Source: a virus (taxonomy: Duplodnaviria > Heunggongvirae > Uroviricota > Caudoviricetes). From it: DNA of 6,593 nt. The stretch lies in the IMG/VR virus record IMGVR_UViG_2541047119_000019, positions 1 through 6,593 of that record; one strand, written 5' to 3'. Positions 1 through 6,593 of the stretch are shown here, in pieces; position 1 is the first letter of the stretch; each line of letters opens with the position of its first letter. The notes beneath the pieces were generated by a model. The model was not told where the DNA came from and did no database searches. It saw only the letters and a program-made list of their open reading frames with translations. The position numbers and the translations under genes are program-made.

Positions 1-299
1 GTTACCTCACAGCTGATACTGAGGGTTTCCGGGTCCTCTGCGAGCGATTCTGGCTGTTCGGCAGCTGCATCGAGAGTCACAGGAAGTAGCTGGGGGCTCT
101 CTGAAGAAGGTAATAGCAGCTTTCCCTCGCGCCATTGTTGTCGCCATTTGAACAACAGATTGGCGTTAATGCCATTTTCAAGAGCAAGTTTTGAGATGGA
201 TATCCCGGGTTCACAGGAGGCAGCAACGAGCTGCTGTTTAAATTCGGGAGGATAATTAGGGCAGCCTTTTCGCCTGCCGGGAGTCACATTTTTCTGCAT
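1..299 (-). CDS. IS-type transposase OrfA/TnpA, helix-turn-helix (HTH_Tnp_1 / PF01527-like), N-terminal ~99 aa; 3' end outside window
   Basis: Manual minus-strand translation from ATG (plus 299-297) gives MQKNVTPGRRKGCPNYPPEFKQQLVAASCEPGISISKLALENGINANLLFKWRQQWREGKLLLPSSESPQLLPVTLDAAAEQPESLAEDPETLSISCEV with no stop to position 1. The PEFK...GxSxxxLAxxxGI...LxxWRxQ pattern is typical of IS3/IS66 OrfA HTH proteins. It is absent from the ORF track because it has no stop inside the window. Confidence 0.7.
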   Translation of the reverse strand, partial: MQKNVTPGRRKGCPNYPPEFKQQLVAASCEPGISISKLALENGINANLLFKWRQQWREGKLLLPSSESPQLLPVTLDAAAEQPESLAEDPETLSISCEV

Positions 300-391
300 A
301 TCTGATACTTTGGTTCCCACTACTTATTTGGTGGGCACCACTTTGTCTAATTCGTCAGATTCTGACCAGACGGTTCAGGCTGTACGCTTAC
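1..391 (-). mobile_element. Terminal part of an insertion sequence (IS66-family-like), partial; body continues beyond window start
   Basis: The minus strand of 385-391 reads GTAAGCG, the motif I recall as the start of IS66-family terminal inverted repeats. It lies 92 bp upstream of the minus-strand transposase start at 299. The other end and any target duplication are outside the window, so the boundary is inferred. Confidence 0.5.
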
Positions 392-411
392 TTTTTAAGG
401 AAGGTAAATAC

Positions 412-972
412 ATGCTGATTGGCTATATACGCGTATCAACAAATGACCAGAACACCGGTTTACAAAGAAATGCGCTGGAATGTGCAGGATGTGAGCAGAT
501 TTTTGAAGACAAAATGAGTGGTAAAACGACACAGCGGCCGGGACTGAAGCGGGCACTGAAGAAACTAAAACCCGGTGACACGCTGATGGTCTGGAAACTG
601 GACAGGCTGGGGCGCAGTATGCGCCACCTTGTTGCGCTGACAGATGAATTACAGCAACAGGGGATAAATTTTCGTAGTCTTACTGACAACATTGATACGT
701 CAACCCCCATGGGGCGCTTCTTTTTTCACATAATGGGTGCGCTGGCAGAAATGGAGCGTGAATTAATTGTCGAACGGACACGGGCTGGTCTTGCAGCTGC
801 CCGTGAAAGGGGACGAACCGGCGGCAGACCCCGCCGTCTCACGCAGGAACAATACGAGCAGGTCGGGCGTTTACTGGCCGGGGGTGTCAGTCGAAGACAG
901 GTGGCACTTATTTTTGATATCGGTCTTTCAACCCTTTATCGTTATTATCCTGCGAGCGTTTCGGAAAAATAA
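412..972 (+). CDS. Serine-recombinase DNA invertase, Gin/Pin/Cin/Hin (Din) family
   Basis: From ATG 412 the product begins MLIGYIRVSTNDQNTGLQRNALECAGCEQIFEDK..., with the catalytic Ser in RVSTNDQ, the WKLDRLGRS and GINFRSLTD...MGRFFFH...ALAEMERELIVERT blocks, and a C-terminal HTH (GVSRRQVALIFDIGLSTLYRY). This is near-colinear with my recollection of Gin/Pin. SD AAGGAAGG at 397-404 sits 7 nt before the ATG. The track start at TTG 310 is rejected. Confidence 0.93.
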   Translation: MLIGYIRVSTNDQNTGLQRNALECAGCEQIFEDKMSGKTTQRPGLKRALKKLKPGDTLMVWKLDRLGRSMRHLVALTDELQQQGINFRSLTDNIDTSTPMGRFFFHIMGALAEMERELIVERTRAGLAAARERGRTGGRPRRLTQEQYEQVGRLLAGGVSRRQVALIFDIGLSTLYRYYPASVSEK

Positions 973-1071
973 GACGCTCTCTTTGTTGGGCCTTTACTGA
1001 ATTAACGCAAAATGGCGTTTATCGGTCTGTGGATATGATAATTCAGTTTATTCAGGAACAGGCTGATTATT

Positions 1072-3111
1072 ATGACGTCCAAATGGGTTCAACTATCATC
1101 AATGCCCGGAAACTTTACTGTTAAAGTTTCCGGTGGTACAGCGGCATTTCTTGAGGCTCCCTTTCCTCCGGCCGAAACAAAAGGAGGAATGACATTTGCT
1201 GACTGTCTCATCAGTTTTAATACACGGGATTGCCTGTGGGTAAGGCCAGTATCCGGTGATCCGAGTGTGGAAATTACCGGAGCGGGTATTGGTGCGGTCA
1301 TTCCGTTAAGTGCTGATGTTGCCGGTACTGCTGAACCGTCAGACTGGGATAATGCTGAAACACATACCCGTCCGTCAGGAAATGAAACTGCTTCCAGCTC
1401 CCCTTCCTGGTATTACGTGGTGGTTCTTGCTGGTCAGTCAAACGGTATGGCTTACGGTGAAGGTCTGCCACTGCCGGAGACATATGACCGCCCCGAACCG
1501 CGTATTATGCAGTTAGCCCGTCGCAGTACAGTCACGCCGGGAGGTAAAGCCTGTCAGTATAACGACATCATTCTGGCCGACCACTGTCTGCATGATGTGC
1601 AGGATATGAGTGGAAAAAATCACCCGAAAGCGGATGTGGCTAAAGGGCAATATGGCACCGTGGGTCAGGGGCTTCACATTGCCAAAAAACTGCTGCCGTT
1701 TATTCCGGCAGATGCGGGGATTCTGCTGGTTCCCTGCTGCCGTGGTGGTTCTGCATTCACGGCGGGTGCTGACGGCACGTACAGTGACAGCACGGGTGCT
1801 TCAGAGGACTCAGCCCGCTGGGGTGTGGATAAGCCGCTGTATAAGGACTTAATCAGCCGGACAAAAGCGGCACTGGCGAAGAACCCGAAAAACCGCCTGC
1901 TTGCTGTGGTGTGGATGCAGGGCGAGTTTGATATTGATGCGAAGCCGACGGAGCATTCTGCGCTGTTTCTGGCGATGGTGGAAAAATTCCGCGCAGACCT
2001 GGCTGAACAGGCGGAACAGTGTACCGGTGGCAGTGCTGCTGGCGTTCCGTGGATTTGTGGCGATACCACGTATTTCTGGAAACAGAAAAATGAACCAGCA
2101 TACCAGGCAATCTATGGCGGCTACAAAAACAAAACAGATAAAAACATTCATTTCGTTCCATTAATGACAGATGAAAATGGCGTGAATGTACCCACCAACA
2201 ATCCGGCAGAAGACCCGGATATTGAATCCATTGGTTATTACGGCTCAACGTGGCGTAACAGTGCCGCTACCTGGACATCTGCGGACCGGGCCAGCCATTT
2301 CAGTGCCTGGGCGCGCCGGGGTATTATTTCTGACCGTCTGGCCACGGCTGTTCTGACTCATGCAGGGCGAACCACAGTAAAAGCCGATGTTCCATCTTCT
2401 GAAACTGAAGCACCAGTGCCGTCACCTTCAGAAACTGAAGCAGTAACCACAACACTGCTGTCTTACCGTGTCAGTGAGTCAGAAGGAAATCTGAAAGCCC
2501 AGGGCTGGGAGCCGGCTGGCGGTAAAGCTGAAATTATCAGTGATGCAGGAGGCACAGGTGGTAAGGCAATGAAACTGACCAAGGAAACAGGTAAATCATC
2601 CTGGTATCTGGATCATGATGCCGGTACTGGTGCTGAACTGCTGAAAAATGGTGGTTTAATCAGTTGTCGTTTTAAAGTACCTGGCGACCTGGTGGCAAAC
2701 CAGTATGTCATGGCGCTTTACTGGCCGGTTTCCTCTCTGCCGCAGGGTGTCACCCTGACAGGGGATGCAGGGAATAATCTGCTGGCATCGTTCTACATCC
2801 AGACAGACGCAAAAGACCTGAATGTGATGTACCACAATGCAAAAGTGGCAACAAATAACCAGAAACTGGGAACCTTTGGTGCATTTGATAATGAATGGCA
2901 TACGCTGGCCTTCCGTTTTGCAGGAAATAACAGCCTTCAGGTTATTCCGGTTATTGATGGTCAGGATGGTGCCGCGTTTACCCTGACGCAGTCACCAGTA
3001 GGAACTTTCCCGGTGGACAAACTCCGCGTAACGGATATCACCAAAAATGCAACTTACCCGGTGCTGATTGACAGCATTGTGGTGGAAGTGAAAAAAGCGG
3101 TAACAGAATAA
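1072..3111 (+). CDS. SASA/SGNH-family carbohydrate esterase (sialate O-acetylesterase-like, resembling prophage NanS-p), with Pro/Ser/Thr/Glu linker and C-terminal putative carbohydrate-binding domain
   Basis: 679-aa ORF. It carries the YYVVVLAGQSNGMAYGEG block (GQSN catalytic-serine motif of sialate O-acetylesterase / DUF303-type SGNH hydrolases), then CRGGS and VVWMQGEFD blocks. A repetitive SSETEAPVPSPSETEA linker separates a ~220-aa C-terminal domain. Start choice (ATG 1072 versus internal ATG 1102) is uncertain. Confidence 0.78.
   Translation: MTSKWVQLSSMPGNFTVKVSGGTAAFLEAPFPPAETKGGMTFADCLISFNTRDCLWVRPVSGDPSVEITGAGIGAVIPLSADVAGTAEPSDWDNAETHTRPSGNETASSSPSWYYVVVLAGQSNGMAYGEGLPLPETYDRPEPRIMQLARRSTVTPGGKACQYNDIILADHCLHDVQDMSGKNHPKADVAKGQYGTVGQGLHIAKKLLPFIPADAGILLVPCCRGGSAFTAGADGTYSDSTGASEDSARWGVDKPLYKDLISRTKAALAKNPKNRLLAVVWMQGEFDIDAKPTEHSALFLAMVEKFRADLAEQAEQCTGGSAAGVPWICGDTTYFWKQKNEPAYQAIYGGYKNKTDKNIHFVPLMTDENGVNVPTNNPAEDPDIESIGYYGSTWRNSAATWTSADRASHFSAWARRGIISDRLATAVLTHAGRTTVKADVPSSETEAPVPSPSETEAVTTTLLSYRVSESEGNLKAQGWEPAGGKAEIISDAGGTGGKAMKLTKETGKSSWYLDHDAGTGAELLKNGGLISCRFKVPGDLVANQYVMALYWPVSSLPQGVTLTGDAGNNLLASFYIQTDAKDLNVMYHNAKVATNNQKLGTFGAFDNEWHTLAFRFAGNNSLQVIPVIDGQDGAAFTLTQSPVGTFPVDKLRVTDITKNATYPVLIDSIVVEVKKAVTE
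2398..2442 (+). repeat. Short in-frame tandem-like direct repeat (TCTGAAACTGAAGCA / TCAGAAACTGAAGCA, 30-bp period) encoding the SETEA linker
   Basis: Two 15-bp copies at 2398-2412 and 2428-2442, 14/15 identical, read directly from the sequence inside the esterase ORF. Confidence 0.85.
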
Positions 3112-3117
3112 AAAAAT

Positions 3118-3144
3118 CCCGCCGGTCATGATATGGCTGGCGGG
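3118..3144. terminator. GC-rich hairpin just after the esterase stop; possible terminator, orientation ambiguous
   Basis: CCCGCCGG (3118-3125), 11-nt loop, CTGGCGGG (3137-3144): 8 bp with one G-U pair. An A6 run precedes it, which would be a U-tract on the minus strand. No U-tract follows on the plus strand. Confidence 0.35.
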
Positions 3145-3257
3145 AGCTACCTAACCCATAAAGGAAAATAAAAATACTCCCGAAGGAGTGGTTATCAGTC
3201 GCTTCGATGTTTTTACCCGATAACGAATTATGTAGTCAATATCAAAGGTAAGGTTAT

Positions 3258-3440
3258 ATGACATTCGTTCATACAATGCTGCTTTATTTCTGCGCTGTGG
3301 TCAGTGCGTTATATCTGGTGAGCGGCGGTTATAAGGTCATCAGAAATTATATTCGCCGTAAAATTGATGATGCGGCAGCTGAAAAACTCAGTAAAACAGC
3401 ACAGGCACCGTCATCCCCAAACGACCCGACCCCGCTCTGA
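3258..3440 (+). CDS. Small hypothetical membrane protein (60 aa, one predicted N-terminal TM helix followed by a basic segment)
   Basis: ATG 3258 is preceded by AAGGTAAGG (3245-3253). The hydrophobic stretch TMLLYFCAVVSALYLVSGGY is followed by KVIRNYIRRK. No family recognised. Confidence 0.55.
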   Translation: MTFVHTMLLYFCAVVSALYLVSGGYKVIRNYIRRKIDDAAAEKLSKTAQAPSSPNDPTPL

Positions 3441-3475
3441 TAACGGGGCAATATACCTGCAAAAGGAGAATATTC

Positions 3476-3721
3476 ATGCCAGAGATTAAAGGCACGGTTA
3501 CTGAAGAGCTTGTCAAACAGGCACTTTATTCTGAAGAAGTGAACCGCGTGCTGAAGGCGCAGGTTCGCAAGGATTTTGAGGCACAAATCGACGCATATGT
3601 TGATGAAGTGCTGGCCCGAATGGTTGGCCGTTCTCCGGCTGAAAACAGCACGGAAAATGATCCTCAACCCGTAGAGCAACCAGAGCCGGTTCAGCCCGGA
3701 ACTGACGGTACTATGATGTAA
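3476..3721 (+). CDS. Small hypothetical acidic protein (81 aa), predicted helical N-terminal half and Pro/Glu-rich tail
   Basis: ATG 3476 is preceded by a strong SD AAGGAG (3463-3468, 7-nt spacing). It lies 35 bp after the previous small ORF, suggesting a two-gene unit. No family recognised. Confidence 0.6.
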   Translation: MPEIKGTVTEELVKQALYSEEVNRVLKAQVRKDFEAQIDAYVDEVLARMVGRSPAENSTENDPQPVEQPEPVQPGTDGTMM

Positions 3722-3730
3722 CAATACCGA

Positions 3731-3750
3731 CCGGCAGGTTTCCCTGCCGG
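3731..3750 (+). terminator. Candidate intrinsic terminator after the small-ORF pair
   Basis: Perfect 8-bp stem CCGGCAGG / CCTGCCGG with 4-nt loop TTTC, followed by the T-rich GTGAGTTTGTTAATG. Confidence 0.5.
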
Positions 3751-4076
3751 GTGAGTTTGTTAATGCACGTTTTGTGTATTTTCCCTCCTGGGAGAACAGG
3801 CAGGACATATCAGCATCCTGAAACAGGAAGCATTTTTGGGTTTGTATGTCTTGCCATTTTGAGATCGAGAACGGCGATAGATGAGCTGTAAGGGAGTCTT
3901 ACAGGCAGGGCAAACAGGCTCTTTCATCCATGATAAAGATCTCCTTTTTATGCATCTCTGCTTTACAGGAGACTGGGGAATATCATAGGATACGCCACGA
4001 GCTCGAAGTAAAGCATTGATGCAAAATTGTCTAAATCGGCCCAGAATAGTTCGCGCTATCTGGGTCGCTCTTTATG

Positions 4077-4112
4077 TATGTAGTATCCCATTGATTTGAA
4101 ACATACTACATA
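4077..4112. promoter_or_regulatory. Perfect 10-bp inverted repeat (TATGTAGTAT-N16-ATACTACATA); candidate operator or structured element
   Basis: Arms at 4077-4086 and 4103-4112 are exact reverse complements, in the AT-rich non-coding region upstream of com-mom. Confidence 0.3.
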
Positions 4113-4147
4113 TACGCGCGATCCTACCTTCACTATATAAAAAGTCA

Positions 4148-4165
4148 ATAAAATGATCATTTTAT
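4148..4165. promoter_or_regulatory. 18-bp perfect palindrome centred on a Dam site (ATAAAATGATCATTTTAT); candidate methylation-sensitive regulator binding site
   Basis: Read directly; a second GATC lies 11 bp away at 4166-4169 and another at 4120-4123. Confidence 0.35.
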
Positions 4166-4272
4166 GATCGTTTTCACCACCTAACTCTTCGTTTTCTTTA
4201 AGTAAATAATCACCTACCTGAATCATTGTTGATGACTTTTCAATCTATTTGTTGTATCAATTAAACAAATCG

Positions 4273-4297
4273 AATCGATCGTTTTTGTCGATCGATT
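4273..4297. promoter_or_regulatory. Inverted repeat AATCGATCG-N7-CGATCGATT with a GATC in each arm, 44 bp upstream of the com start; candidate operator / Dam-sensitive site
   Basis: Arms at 4273-4281 and 4289-4297 are exact reverse complements, with GATC at 4277-4280 and 4290-4293. Confidence 0.35.
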
Positions 4298-4340
4298 GCA
4301 TGAGAAAGGCATCAACAACAAAGCAGGAGGTTATGCGGCC

Positions 4341-4541
4341 ATGTATCGAAACATACGGTGCCGACACTGCAATAAGCTACTGGCACGGGCCAGTTTCAGT
4401 TATCTGGAAGTAAAATGTCCGCGCTGTAAAACCCTCAATCAAATCACATCTCCGAGCGCCACAGAGCACCCCACATACACAAGGAAATCCTGTCGTGGGG
4501 AACAGAAAGCAAGTCACATCCCGAATCATCAGCACGCCTGA
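4341..4541 (+). CDS. com: Com-like zinc-finger translational activator (phage Mu Com homologue)
   Basis: From ATG 4341 (SD AGGAGG 4324-4329) the 66-aa product is [34 protein letters not shown]...EHPT.... The two CxxC pairs and the IRC..CNKLL...CPRCK...EHPT pattern match my recollection of Mu Com. Its 3' end overlaps the next ORF out of frame, as com overlaps mom in Mu. The track start at TTG 4296 is rejected. Confidence 0.82.
4469..4500 (+). promoter_or_regulatory. mRNA stem-loop sequestering the predicted mom SD and GUG start (translation-inhibition-structure-like)
   Basis: CCCCAC (4469-4474) pairs with GTGGGG (4495-4500); the GTG is the predicted mom start. The 20-nt loop contains AAGGA (4481-4485). 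This is analogous to the Mu mom TIS that Com binding relieves. Confidence 0.5.
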
Positions 4542-5232
4542 ACTTATTCGCTATAACGACAATATCGTTGGTTATGGCTCCCGTGAGTTGCGGGTTGAGA
4601 CAATAAGTTGCTGGCTGGCCAGACTGGTCATCGTCAATAAACATTACAGCCACCGTTTCGTAAATAACTCCTACCTTCATCTGGGCATATTTTCAGAACG
4701 GGAACTTGTTGGCGTAATGCAATGGGGTTACGCCCTTAACCCAAACAGTGGTGCACGCGTCGTAACGGGTACGCAGAACCGAGAATATATGGAGCTTAAC
4801 CGGCTATGGCTGCATGACTGTATGCCGAGAAACTCCGAATCAAGGGCAATCAGTTACGCGCTCAAGCTAATCAGGCAGCTTTATCCGCAGGTACAGTGGG
4901 TTCAGTCGTTTGCAGATGAGCGTTGTGGCTGTCTTGGTGTCGTGTATCAGGCAAGCAATTTTGATTATGTAGGCAGCCATGAATCAATATTCTATGAACT
5001 TGATGGCGAGTGGTATCACGAGATTTGCAGGAATGCCATTAAACGAGGCGGACAACGAGGTGAACATCTGAGGGCTAATATTGACAGAGCCAATGTTCAT
5101 AAGTTCCGACAGTTTCGTTACATCCGGTTTCTGAACAAGAGGGCCAAAAAACGCCTCAACACAAAGCTATTCAAAGTCCAGCCTTACCCAAAACCACAAA
5201 CAGTTAAAACTGGTTTGAAAGAGAGTGAATGA
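4495..5232 (+). CDS. mom: Mom-like DNA modification protein (phage Mu Mom homologue; adenine N6-methylcarbamoyl/acetamido modification, anti-restriction)
   Basis: 245-aa ORF immediately downstream of and overlapping the com-like gene (4495-4541) in another frame. GTG 4495 is the first start codon after the frame opens at 4414, with AAGGA 9 nt upstream. Size is close to Mu Mom. The call rests mainly on synteny with the clearly Com-like gene; the Mom sequence was not matched from memory. Confidence 0.75.
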
Positions 5233-5263
5233 GCGCTTAAAAACTCATTCTAAAACTCAAAAG

Positions 5264-5308
5264 AAAAGCGCCGATTTAGTATCAAATAAGTTGCGTATCG
5301 GCGTTTTT
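5264..5308. terminator. A-tract / hairpin / T-tract element after mom; candidate bidirectional terminator or IS-end structure
   Basis: AAAAGCGCCGAT (5264-5275) pairs with ATCGGCGTTTTT (5297-5308), one G-U pair, around a long 21-nt loop. A second 7-bp hairpin GAATGAG/CTCATTC (5227-5250) spans the mom stop. Confidence 0.4.
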
Positions 5309-5411
5309 CAGCAGTATCAAATGAAATGCAAATCGGTATCAAAAAAATCGCCGCGCTATACTACAGGCATTTAAATTCCAGTTAAGACCAGGTGGTCAAC
5401 AGGAGCGTGAA

Positions 5412-6560
5412 ATGAGGCGCTTCGCAGGCGCATGTCGTTTCGTTTTCAATCGTGCTCTGGCGCTTCAGAATGAGAATCATGAGGCCGGTAATAAATACAT
5501 CCCTTACGGGAAAATGGCTTCCTGGCTGGTTGAGTGGAAAAACGCCACTGAAACGCAATGGCTTAAAGATGCCCCGTCACAGCCATTGCAACAGTCACTG
5601 AAAGAGCTTGAGCGGGCTTACAAAAACTTCTTCCGGAAGCGGGCTGCTTTTCCCCGATTCAAAAAGCGGGGACAGAATGATGCATTCCGCTACCCGCAGG
5701 GCGTTAAGCTCGATCAGGAAAACAGCCGTATTTTTCTGCCGAAACTTGGCTGGATGCGCTACCGGAACAGCCGTCAGGTCACGGGTGTTGTGAAAAATGT
5801 CACTGTCAGCCAGTCCTGCGGTAAGTGGTACATCAGTATTCAGACAGAAAGTGAAGTATCAACTCCGGTTCACCCTTCAGCATCAATGGTCGGACTGGAT
5901 GCTGGCGTGGCTAAACTCGCCACGCTGTCAGATGGCACAGTCTTTGGACCTGTAAACAGTTTTCAGAAAAACCAGAAGACGCTGGCGAGACTTCAGCGAC
6001 AGTTAAGCCGCAAGGTCAAATTCAGCAACAACTGGCAGAAGCAGAAACGCAAAATACAGCGACTGCATTCCTGTATCGCAAATATCCGCAGGGACTACCT
6101 TCACAAAGTCACAACGACCGTCAGCAAAAACCACGCAATGATAGTCATTGAGGATTTGAAGGTCAGCAACATGTCAAAGTCAGCAGCGGGTACGGTCAGC
6201 CAGCCGGGGCGCAATGTCCGGGCAAAATCAGGTTTAAACCGTTCGATACTGGATCAGGGCTGGTATGAAATGCGCCGCCAGCTTGAGTACAAGCAGCTCT
6301 GGCGTGGCGGTCAGGTGCTTGCTGTTCCGCCAGCGTACACAAGCCAGCGTTGCGCGTGCTGTGGTCATACAGCGAAAGAAAATCGCCTGTCACAAAGTAA
6401 ATTCAGATGCCAGGCATGTGGATATACAGCGAACGCTGATGTAAATGGCGCTCGTAACATTTTAGCGGCGGGGCACGCCGTTCTTGCCTGTGGGGAGATG
6501 GTGCAGTCAGGCCGCCCGTTGAAGCAGGAACCCACCGAAATGATTCAGGCGACAGCCTGA
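5412..6560 (+). CDS. tnpB: TnpB (OrfB) of an IS200/IS605-family element; RuvC-like RNA-guided endonuclease fold with zinc ribbon
   Basis: 382-aa ORF with SD AGGAG (5401-5405). RuvC-like motifs are present: VGLDAGV (D), IVIEDLKV (E) and [10 protein letters not shown] (D), plus zinc ribbon CACCGH...CQACGY. The in-frame upstream translation (ILQAFKFQLRPGGQQERE, 5358-5411) looks like the conserved TnpB N-terminus but has no ATG/GTG/TTG after the stop at 5322-5324. Confidence 0.9.
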
Positions 6561-6593
6561 ACGTAGCAGGGATCCTCGTCCTTCAGGGCTTGG

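Follow-up and report, generated by a model that had tools for sequence, protein, structure and literature searches.

Prophage right arm and IS609 segment

The stretch of DNA analysed here, referred to as the window, is 6,593 nucleotides long and comprises positions 1 to 6,593 of the IMG/VR virus record IMGVR_UViG_2541047119_000019; all features described below lie on its plus strand. Positions 1-5360 correspond to the right arm of a Mu-like transposable prophage, recognized by Pfam domains and by identity to relatives, with gin, a SASA/DUF6645 esterase gene, com, mom and the right terminus, and positions 5361-6593 belong to IS609, an insertion sequence of the IS200/IS605 family. The gin-type serine invertase ORF (Pfam Resolvase and HTH_7; 310-972) encodes 220 amino acids if read from TTG 310; relatives are annotated with a 186-amino acid form, and the true start is probably an internal ATG (MLIGYIRVS...). 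Downstream, the 679-amino acid esterase with SASA (sialate O-acetylesterase) and DUF6645 Pfam domains (1072-3111) is a cargo gene between gin and com, whose homologues with approximately 78-82% DNA identity occur in Stx-converting phages, where some are annotated as yjhS, 9-O-acetyl-N-acetylneuraminic acid deacetylase. The com gene (Pfam Zn_ribbon_Com; start at 4296 or 4341, end at 4541) and the mom gene (Pfam Mom; 4495-5232) follow, and together with gin they are the only Mu-like genes in the window itself. Positions 391-4508 share 96.5% identity with regions that Stx phage records (LC727881 and LC727895) label as an inserted Mu-like phage, and positions 4200-5360 are 100% identical to prophage right ends located at many chromosomal sites, for example beside rihA, betT and hofQ.

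A repeat search in the terminal part of the arm revealed three direct repeats, GTATCAAA(N8), starting at 5279, 5314 and 5336 (5279-5351); related prophages have an inverted copy, TTTGATACCGAC, 17 nt inward from their left end. These repeats are presumed, by analogy with R1-R3 of Mu, to be binding sites of a Mu-type transposase. The right terminus itself, GCGCTATA (5353-5360), was delimited by comparison of relatives, for which other insertion sites were found by a look-up of the Mom protein. Ten relatives, representing at least nine distinct sites (L019 and L020 having a flank in common), are identical through ...CGCGCTATA (...TCGCCGCGCTATA) and then diverge, the next base being A, T, T, T, G, T, T, T, C and C, respectively; therefore, the phage terminus corresponds to position 5360 of the window. 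With the window included, at least 10 distinct flanks follow an identical ...GCGCTATA, as is characteristic of transposition into many sites and not of site-specific integration.

One complete relative (L004), 39.5 kb in length, interrupts rihA and encodes a protein with the Mu transposase C-terminal domain, an AAA ATPase, Gam, Mor, gpT and other proteins, Mu-type late gene products among them. The transposase gene lies at its far end, and the adjacent AAA ATPase gene would, by analogy with Mu, encode MuB. In all three related prophages for which both junctions could be read, those in rihA, lsrC and a sulfatase gene, the prophage is flanked by 4-bp direct repeats. The repeats are AAAG, TGTC and TATA, and the base adjoining them on each side is constant and is therefore assigned to the phage, so that the ends of this prophage family read ...CTATA (terminal TA) on the right and TGTAACC on the left; the left end begins TGTAACCAGGTGAATC.... 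Junctions were located at positions 2700-2715 and 42180-42195 of L004, at about 796 of L023, at about 124 of L024, and at about 10861-10866 of L014 and L017.

The affiliation of the remaining part of the window with IS609 follows from nucleotide identity: positions 5361-6593 are 97.7% identical to the K-12 copy (1232 nt, annotated as mobile_genetic_element IS609), 99.4% identical to the O157 copy and 99.7% identical to IS609 contigs in Logan. Positions 5200-6593 match 5017 of 5426 complete Escherichia coli genomes, mostly with 95-99% identity and in a median of two places per genome, where the matched feature is annotated as RNA-guided endonuclease InsQ/TnpB family protein; all IS609 matches begin at window position 5360, or at 5368 in the case of more divergent phage copies.

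Most of this segment is occupied by the remaining tnpB (insQ) ORF (5412-6560), the 382 codons of which correspond to residues 21-402 of IS609 TnpB, as judged from the ORF, Pfam and NCBIfam matches and alignment to PDB structures. The Pfam families PF12323 (HTH_OrfB_IS605), PF01385 (OrfB_IS605, RuvC) and PF07282 (Cas12f1-like_TNB, zinc ribbon) are all matched above their gathering thresholds, and the NCBIfam family NF040570 is matched with a score of 387 bits (cutoff, 100). In the alignment to the TnpB of ISDra2, the RuvC residues D (5898-5900), E (6150-6152) and D (6438-6440) coincide with the motifs that contain D191, E278 and D361, and the two CxxC motifs of the zinc ribbon are located at 6351-6362 and 6408-6419. 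The initial annotation, made from the sequence alone, had described a TnpB with an intact RuvC triad and zinc ribbon, and both the ISDra2 alignment and Pfam bear this out. The 382-amino acid product differs from the O157 copy by three residues and from the K-12 copy by nine, and an exact-protein look-up found it encoded identically on intact IS609 contigs, with matches confined to short contigs of this kind. The nine differences of K-12 InsQ include a Y for C within the first zinc-ribbon motif, which reads CAYC there as against CACC in the window; the CxxC pair is kept.

The limits of IS609 were derived by comparing the empty ytfA site of K-12 with the insertion in O157 and from the annotation of IS609 in K-12. 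Insertion takes place 3' of TTAT. The first bases of the element are CCGGTGCG..., the left-end hairpin being CCCCGTCCTTCAGGGCGGGG, and its sequence terminates ...GGAGGATGTCAA with the right-end hairpin CCACGTCCTTCAGGGCGTGG, 43 nt past the tnpB stop. Accordingly, 33 of the 43 nt of the right end (6561-6593) are in the window, including the subterminal hairpin at 6574-6593 (CCTCGTCCTTCAGGGCTTGG), and the last 10 nt, AGGATGTCAA, are beyond it. The stem of this hairpin, a perfect 8-bp helix in K-12 (CCACGTCC/GGGCGTGG), contains one mismatch in O157 and two in the window, which might weaken recognition by TnpA or the 3' hairpin of the omega-RNA. In ISDra2, the approximately 116 nt that immediately precede the guide make up the essential omega-RNA scaffold, which overlaps the tnpB 3' end (PMC10097598). 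By analogy, a scaffold formed by the tnpB 3' end and the right end is predicted at 6488-6593, a region that folds in structure prediction; the window would then hold nearly the whole scaffold, with the guide starting about 10 nt past its last base. Rfam gave zero matches to any part of the window at E<=1, so that no curated omega-RNA family was available for comparison. The right end and the omega-RNA had originally been expected to extend beyond the window, which holds only for the last 10 nt and the guide flank.

Reading frame and ancestral start of tnpB

Upstream of the 382-codon ORF, the frame is open from the in-frame stop TGA at 5322-5324 to the next in-frame start, ATG 5412, with the ORF running from this ATG to the stop at 6560. 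The codons at 5325-5411 translate as NANRYQKNRRAILQAFKFQLRPGGQQERE and contain no ATG, GTG or TTG, in agreement with the initial annotation, which had also noticed that the sequence ahead of ATG 5412 resembles the conserved TnpB N-terminus. Pfam, NCBIfam and the alignment to IS609 all show this N-terminal sequence to be genuine. The Pfam HTH_OrfB_IS605 match (E 1.3e-13) begins 17 residues before Met5412, and position 1 of the NF040570 profile falls on the F of AFKF; the 382-amino acid form enters this profile at position 15, with a drop of 15 bits in score, and the entry point into the NF038281 profile shifts from position 2 to position 20. The Pfam and NCBIfam profiles thus start 14-19 positions upstream of Met5412, and therefore the upstream similarity is not due to chance. 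The nucleotide sequence of 5361-5411 likewise agrees with intact IS609, the entire IS609 part of the window having 3-8 mismatches to intact copies. This interval is an orphaned, startless 5' coding sequence of IS609 tnpB, namely codons 4-20 of 402 (LQAFKFQLRPGGQQERE), as identified by alignments to the copies in O157, a Morganella phage, RCS47, K-12 and the Logan contigs and to Pfam, NCBIfam and PDB entries.

In intact IS609, the sequence reads CCT GTG AAA CGA CTA CAG GCA TTT AAA TTC, the codons from GTG onward encoding M K R L Q A F K F; the gene encodes a TnpB of 402 amino acids (MKRLQAFKFQLRP..., that starts MKRLQAFKF), with a divergent tnpA that starts 7 nt upstream. The O157:H7 copy, inserted in the TetR-family pseudogene ytfA, comprises tnpA on the minus strand, which bears the annotation IS609 family transposase, and a plus-strand tnpB of 1209 nt (402 amino acids) separated from it by 7 nt. 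The annotation of K-12 gives IS609 a length of 1748 bp, with the tnpA pseudogene yncK and with insQ (b1432) of 402 amino acids. The insQ of phage RCS47 likewise has 402 codons, with ATG at the codon where other intact IS609 have GTG, and retains the frame and the position of the start codon despite about 10 substitutions within those 60 nt. Alignment to full-length IS609 TnpB, proposed with the initial annotation as a means of locating the ancestral start, puts it 20 codons upstream of ATG 5412, at GTG, which is also the start in curated and RefSeq annotation of intact IS609 (ATG in RCS47). In the window, no start codon precedes the conserved WED beta1 strand, since the ancestral GTG is absent together with the 6 nt that follow it.

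The existing annotation of this N-terminus is not consistent: the gene calls on five Logan contigs (L007-L011) and in Morganella phage IME1369_01 use the internal ATG (382 amino acids; 2553-3701 in the IME1369_01 copy, L003), as opposed to the 402 amino acids used by RefSeq, K-12 and RCS47 (2493-3701 in L001 and 3158-4366 in L006). The upstream GTG is present in these records, and in IME1369_01 the 382-amino acid product is labelled putative virulence protein. A group of P1-like phages, RCS47 (L002, 2393-2500), SJ46 and vB_EcoM-813R1, carries a 95%-identical insQ with an ATG start, in which the first approximately 20 codons are far more divergent than the remainder, the upstream sequence is unlike IS609 tnpA and tnpA is not annotated; this gene may be a tnpB-only derivative or another truncation.

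These discrepancies raise the question of whether ATG 5412 could be the true or main start of IS609 TnpB, such that the upstream similarity is a relic and the copy in the window encodes a normal protein. A Shine-Dalgarno-like AGGAG (5401-5405) is located 6 nt before ATG 5412 and makes for a much better ribosome-binding site than that of the GTG of intact IS609, which is preceded by no recognizable Shine-Dalgarno sequence, and gene callers and one phage record give the 382-amino acid form even where the GTG is present. The AGGAG sits within codons Q-E of full-length TnpB and is kept in intact IS609 and RCS47. However, the profiles and the structure of ISDra2 TnpB place 17-20 conserved residues, including WED beta1, upstream of Met5412, the divergent RCS47 gene preserves both frame and start position, and the curated K-12 and RefSeq entries use 402 amino acids; furthermore, even if this start were the correct one, the window no longer contains the native upstream region, where the promoter must lie. 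We consider this alternative quite improbable: the outcome that would have overturned the initial annotation, namely ATG 5412 proving the normal start and the upstream similarity spurious, was not observed.

The prophage-IS609 join

At the join, the window reads ...CGCCGCGCTAT-A-CTACAGGCATTT, in the place where intact copies carry GTGAAACG. Five more contigs with intact IS609, in which the same 382 residues are encoded, also have GTGAAACG. The start codon of tnpB and the next six bases are thus not mutated but missing, with unrelated sequence in their place, and the window lacks GTGAAACGA along with all IS609 sequence to the left of it. The phage end and IS609 have a single nucleotide in common, A5360, a coincidental overlap; homology therefore did not produce the join, and a misjoin in a repeat-driven assembly is unlikely. 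Neither the ORF list nor Pfam reveals a tnpA in the window, which is also devoid of the IS609 left end with its subterminal hairpin 3' of TTAT; both the Y1 transposase gene and the left end are presumed to lie beyond the prophage.

A point mutation of the start, for example from ATG to the ATA at 5358, was rejected, given that this ATA is phage sequence and that the ancestral GTG was two codons further upstream, in the missing sequence. An IS1341-type element with tnpB only was rejected as well, the closest relatives being tnpA-containing IS609 with the divergent tnpA 7 nt upstream. It is also conceivable that a non-canonical start in the phage or junction sequence, such as ATA 5358-5360, yields a near-full-length chimeric TnpB, and this codon is indeed in frame, two codons ahead of LQAFKF. 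Nevertheless, the upstream bases, AAAAAAATCGCCGCGCT, contain no Shine-Dalgarno-like sequence, and the codon exists only through the accident of the junction. Moreover, ATA initiates very poorly in E. coli, and we regard such a start as hardly credible.

Taken together, the position of the join at the exact terminus of the phage and the loss of the adjoining IS609 sequence make it very likely that a Mu-like prophage integrated into IS609 at the very beginning of tnpB (insQ), in its first few codons, and that the window covers the right junction. Such an insertion would have left tnpB from nt 10 onward (window 5361 onward) abutting the right terminus ...GCGCTATA. The left end, tnpA, the tnpB promoter region and the first tnpB bases, including the GTG, would have been displaced across a prophage of about 39 kb; if 4 bp were duplicated, the displaced part of tnpB would extend to about nt 13. 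By reference to the 4-bp repeats of the relatives, the CTAC at 5361-5364 (tnpB nt 10-13) is predicted to be the right copy of the target duplication, and the event appears to have been a simple insertion. The predicted left junction reads ...CCTGTGAAACGACTAC|TGTAACCAGG...; tnpA and then the left end of IS609 would come behind CCTGTGAAACGACTAC. The far end would then be laid out as the IS609 left end after TTAT, tnpA on the minus strand and CATTTGGCCTGTGAAACGACTAC|TGTAACCAGGTGAATCATTTGATACC, that is, left end-tnpA-GTGAAACGACTAC before the left end of the phage.

The occurrence of a conserved N-terminus in frame without a start codon is explained by the displacement of the GTG, and the same insertion, by splitting IS609, accounts for both the missing start codon and the missing tnpA. 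In the initial annotation, an eroded 5' end had been offered as one of three possibilities, and it comes closest: the 5' end is indeed lost, most probably through the splitting of IS609 by the prophage at 5360 and not through gradual erosion. Similarly, tnpA is absent from the window, as had been noticed, the cause being the split element rather than a tnpB-only one. The insertion is probably recent, judging from the intact ORF, RuvC triad and zinc ribbon and from a phage end that is 100% identical to other copies.

Searches for the junctions themselves were negative. The 33-mer that spans the right junction had no exact match in genome, metagenome or viral contig collections; the predicted left junction, allowing a variable gap of 0-8 nt, had no match in the same three kinds of collections; neither junction was present in 5426 complete E. 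coli genomes; and the exact-protein look-up with the junction-spanning 49-amino acid ORF gave zero matches. That the left junction was found in none of the collections searched would fit with a Mu-type rearrangement. Replicative transposition may have been followed by a deletion or inversion next to the prophage, or the IS609 sequence may be variable host DNA that was packaged with the right end of a virion genome; in either case, the 5' part of IS609 would be deleted or elsewhere and not at the other end of the prophage. Replicative transposition of Mu yields adjacent deletions and inversions, and headful packaging adds host DNA at the right end, so that both processes could produce such joins. 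Against this, the right terminus in the window is exactly that of 10 other integrated copies, and each of the three relatives that were inspected is a simple insertion flanked by short target repeats, and we deem a rearrangement unlikely; the outcome for tnpB would in any case be unchanged, the start being lost at the phage end. Insertion of the prophage into tnpB thus remains the preferred explanation, and under it the locus is an ordinary insertional disruption of a known gene, IS609 insQ/tnpB, by a known kind of prophage, not new biology.

Expression, annotation and comparison with known systems

We infer that a full-length TnpB cannot be produced from the copy in the window. The native upstream region of tnpB lies inside tnpA and is lost from the window, and no sigma-70-like promoter was found on the plus strand between 5100 and 5500. 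A transcript crossing the junction, for example by read-through from mom, could be translated from ATG 5412 into a protein lacking residues 1-20. In the structure of ISDra2 TnpB, strand beta1 of the WED beta-barrel comprises residues 1-12, the REC domain (residues 13-116) comes next, and N4 stacks onto the first guide:target base pair (PMC10097598). The 20 untranslatable residues of the window copy align with this WED beta1 strand and the start of the first REC helix, and by analogy the 382-amino acid protein is expected to be misfolded or inactive. As it stands, the copy is unlikely to be the active RNA-guided nuclease that the initial annotation had considered. The notion that such a TnpB without WED beta1, expressed by mom read-through during lytic growth together with the adjacent omega-RNA, might have an altered or regulatory activity has, in our estimation, a negligible probability. 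The split IS609 itself has probably lost its mobility, with some 39 kb now separating its left end from its right end; copies of IS609 elsewhere in the genome can, presumably, still supply TnpA and TnpB in trans.

The proper annotation of the locus is a pseudogene of IS609 tnpB that was truncated at its 5' end when a Mu-like prophage inserted, rather than an intact nuclease of 382 amino acids or a tnpB-only element. More generally, automatic gene callers routinely choose the internal ATG for IS609 TnpB, and the profiles and the ISDra2 structure favour the 402-amino acid form. For the mining of TnpB nucleases, the window copy is unsuitable as a source of the N-terminus; beyond annotation, the significance of the locus is little. 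Our literature search on experiments with IS609 TnpB/InsQ yielded solely a mention of IS609 TnpB as one of nine purified orthologues (PMC12781874), and start-site data were not found.

With respect to the characterized omega-RNA-guided nuclease, the TnpB of ISDra2 from Deinococcus radiodurans (PDB 8H1J, 8BF8/8EXA), residues 3-376 of IS609 TnpB are collinear with residues 3-372 (E 4e-54), and the D/E/D triad and the zinc-ribbon cysteines are conserved. ISDra2 is nevertheless a different insertion sequence, with the target motif TTGAT, whereas the motif deduced here for IS609 is TTAT. Compared with the IS609 of K-12 and other copies, the window has the same tnpB frame, stop and right-end hairpin, but the left end, tnpA and the initial 9 nt of tnpB are missing, and in their place stands the terminus of the prophage.

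On the phage side, the right-arm order in the window, gin, com and mom followed by terminal repeats of transposase-site type, is that of phage Mu and of the Mu-like prophages (Sp18 type) of enterohaemorrhagic E. coli. Unlike Mu, the prophage in the window has the SASA/DUF6645 esterase gene between gin and com and ends on the right with TA instead of CA, and the flanking repeats of the three relatives are 4 bp long, whereas the target duplications of Mu are 5 bp.
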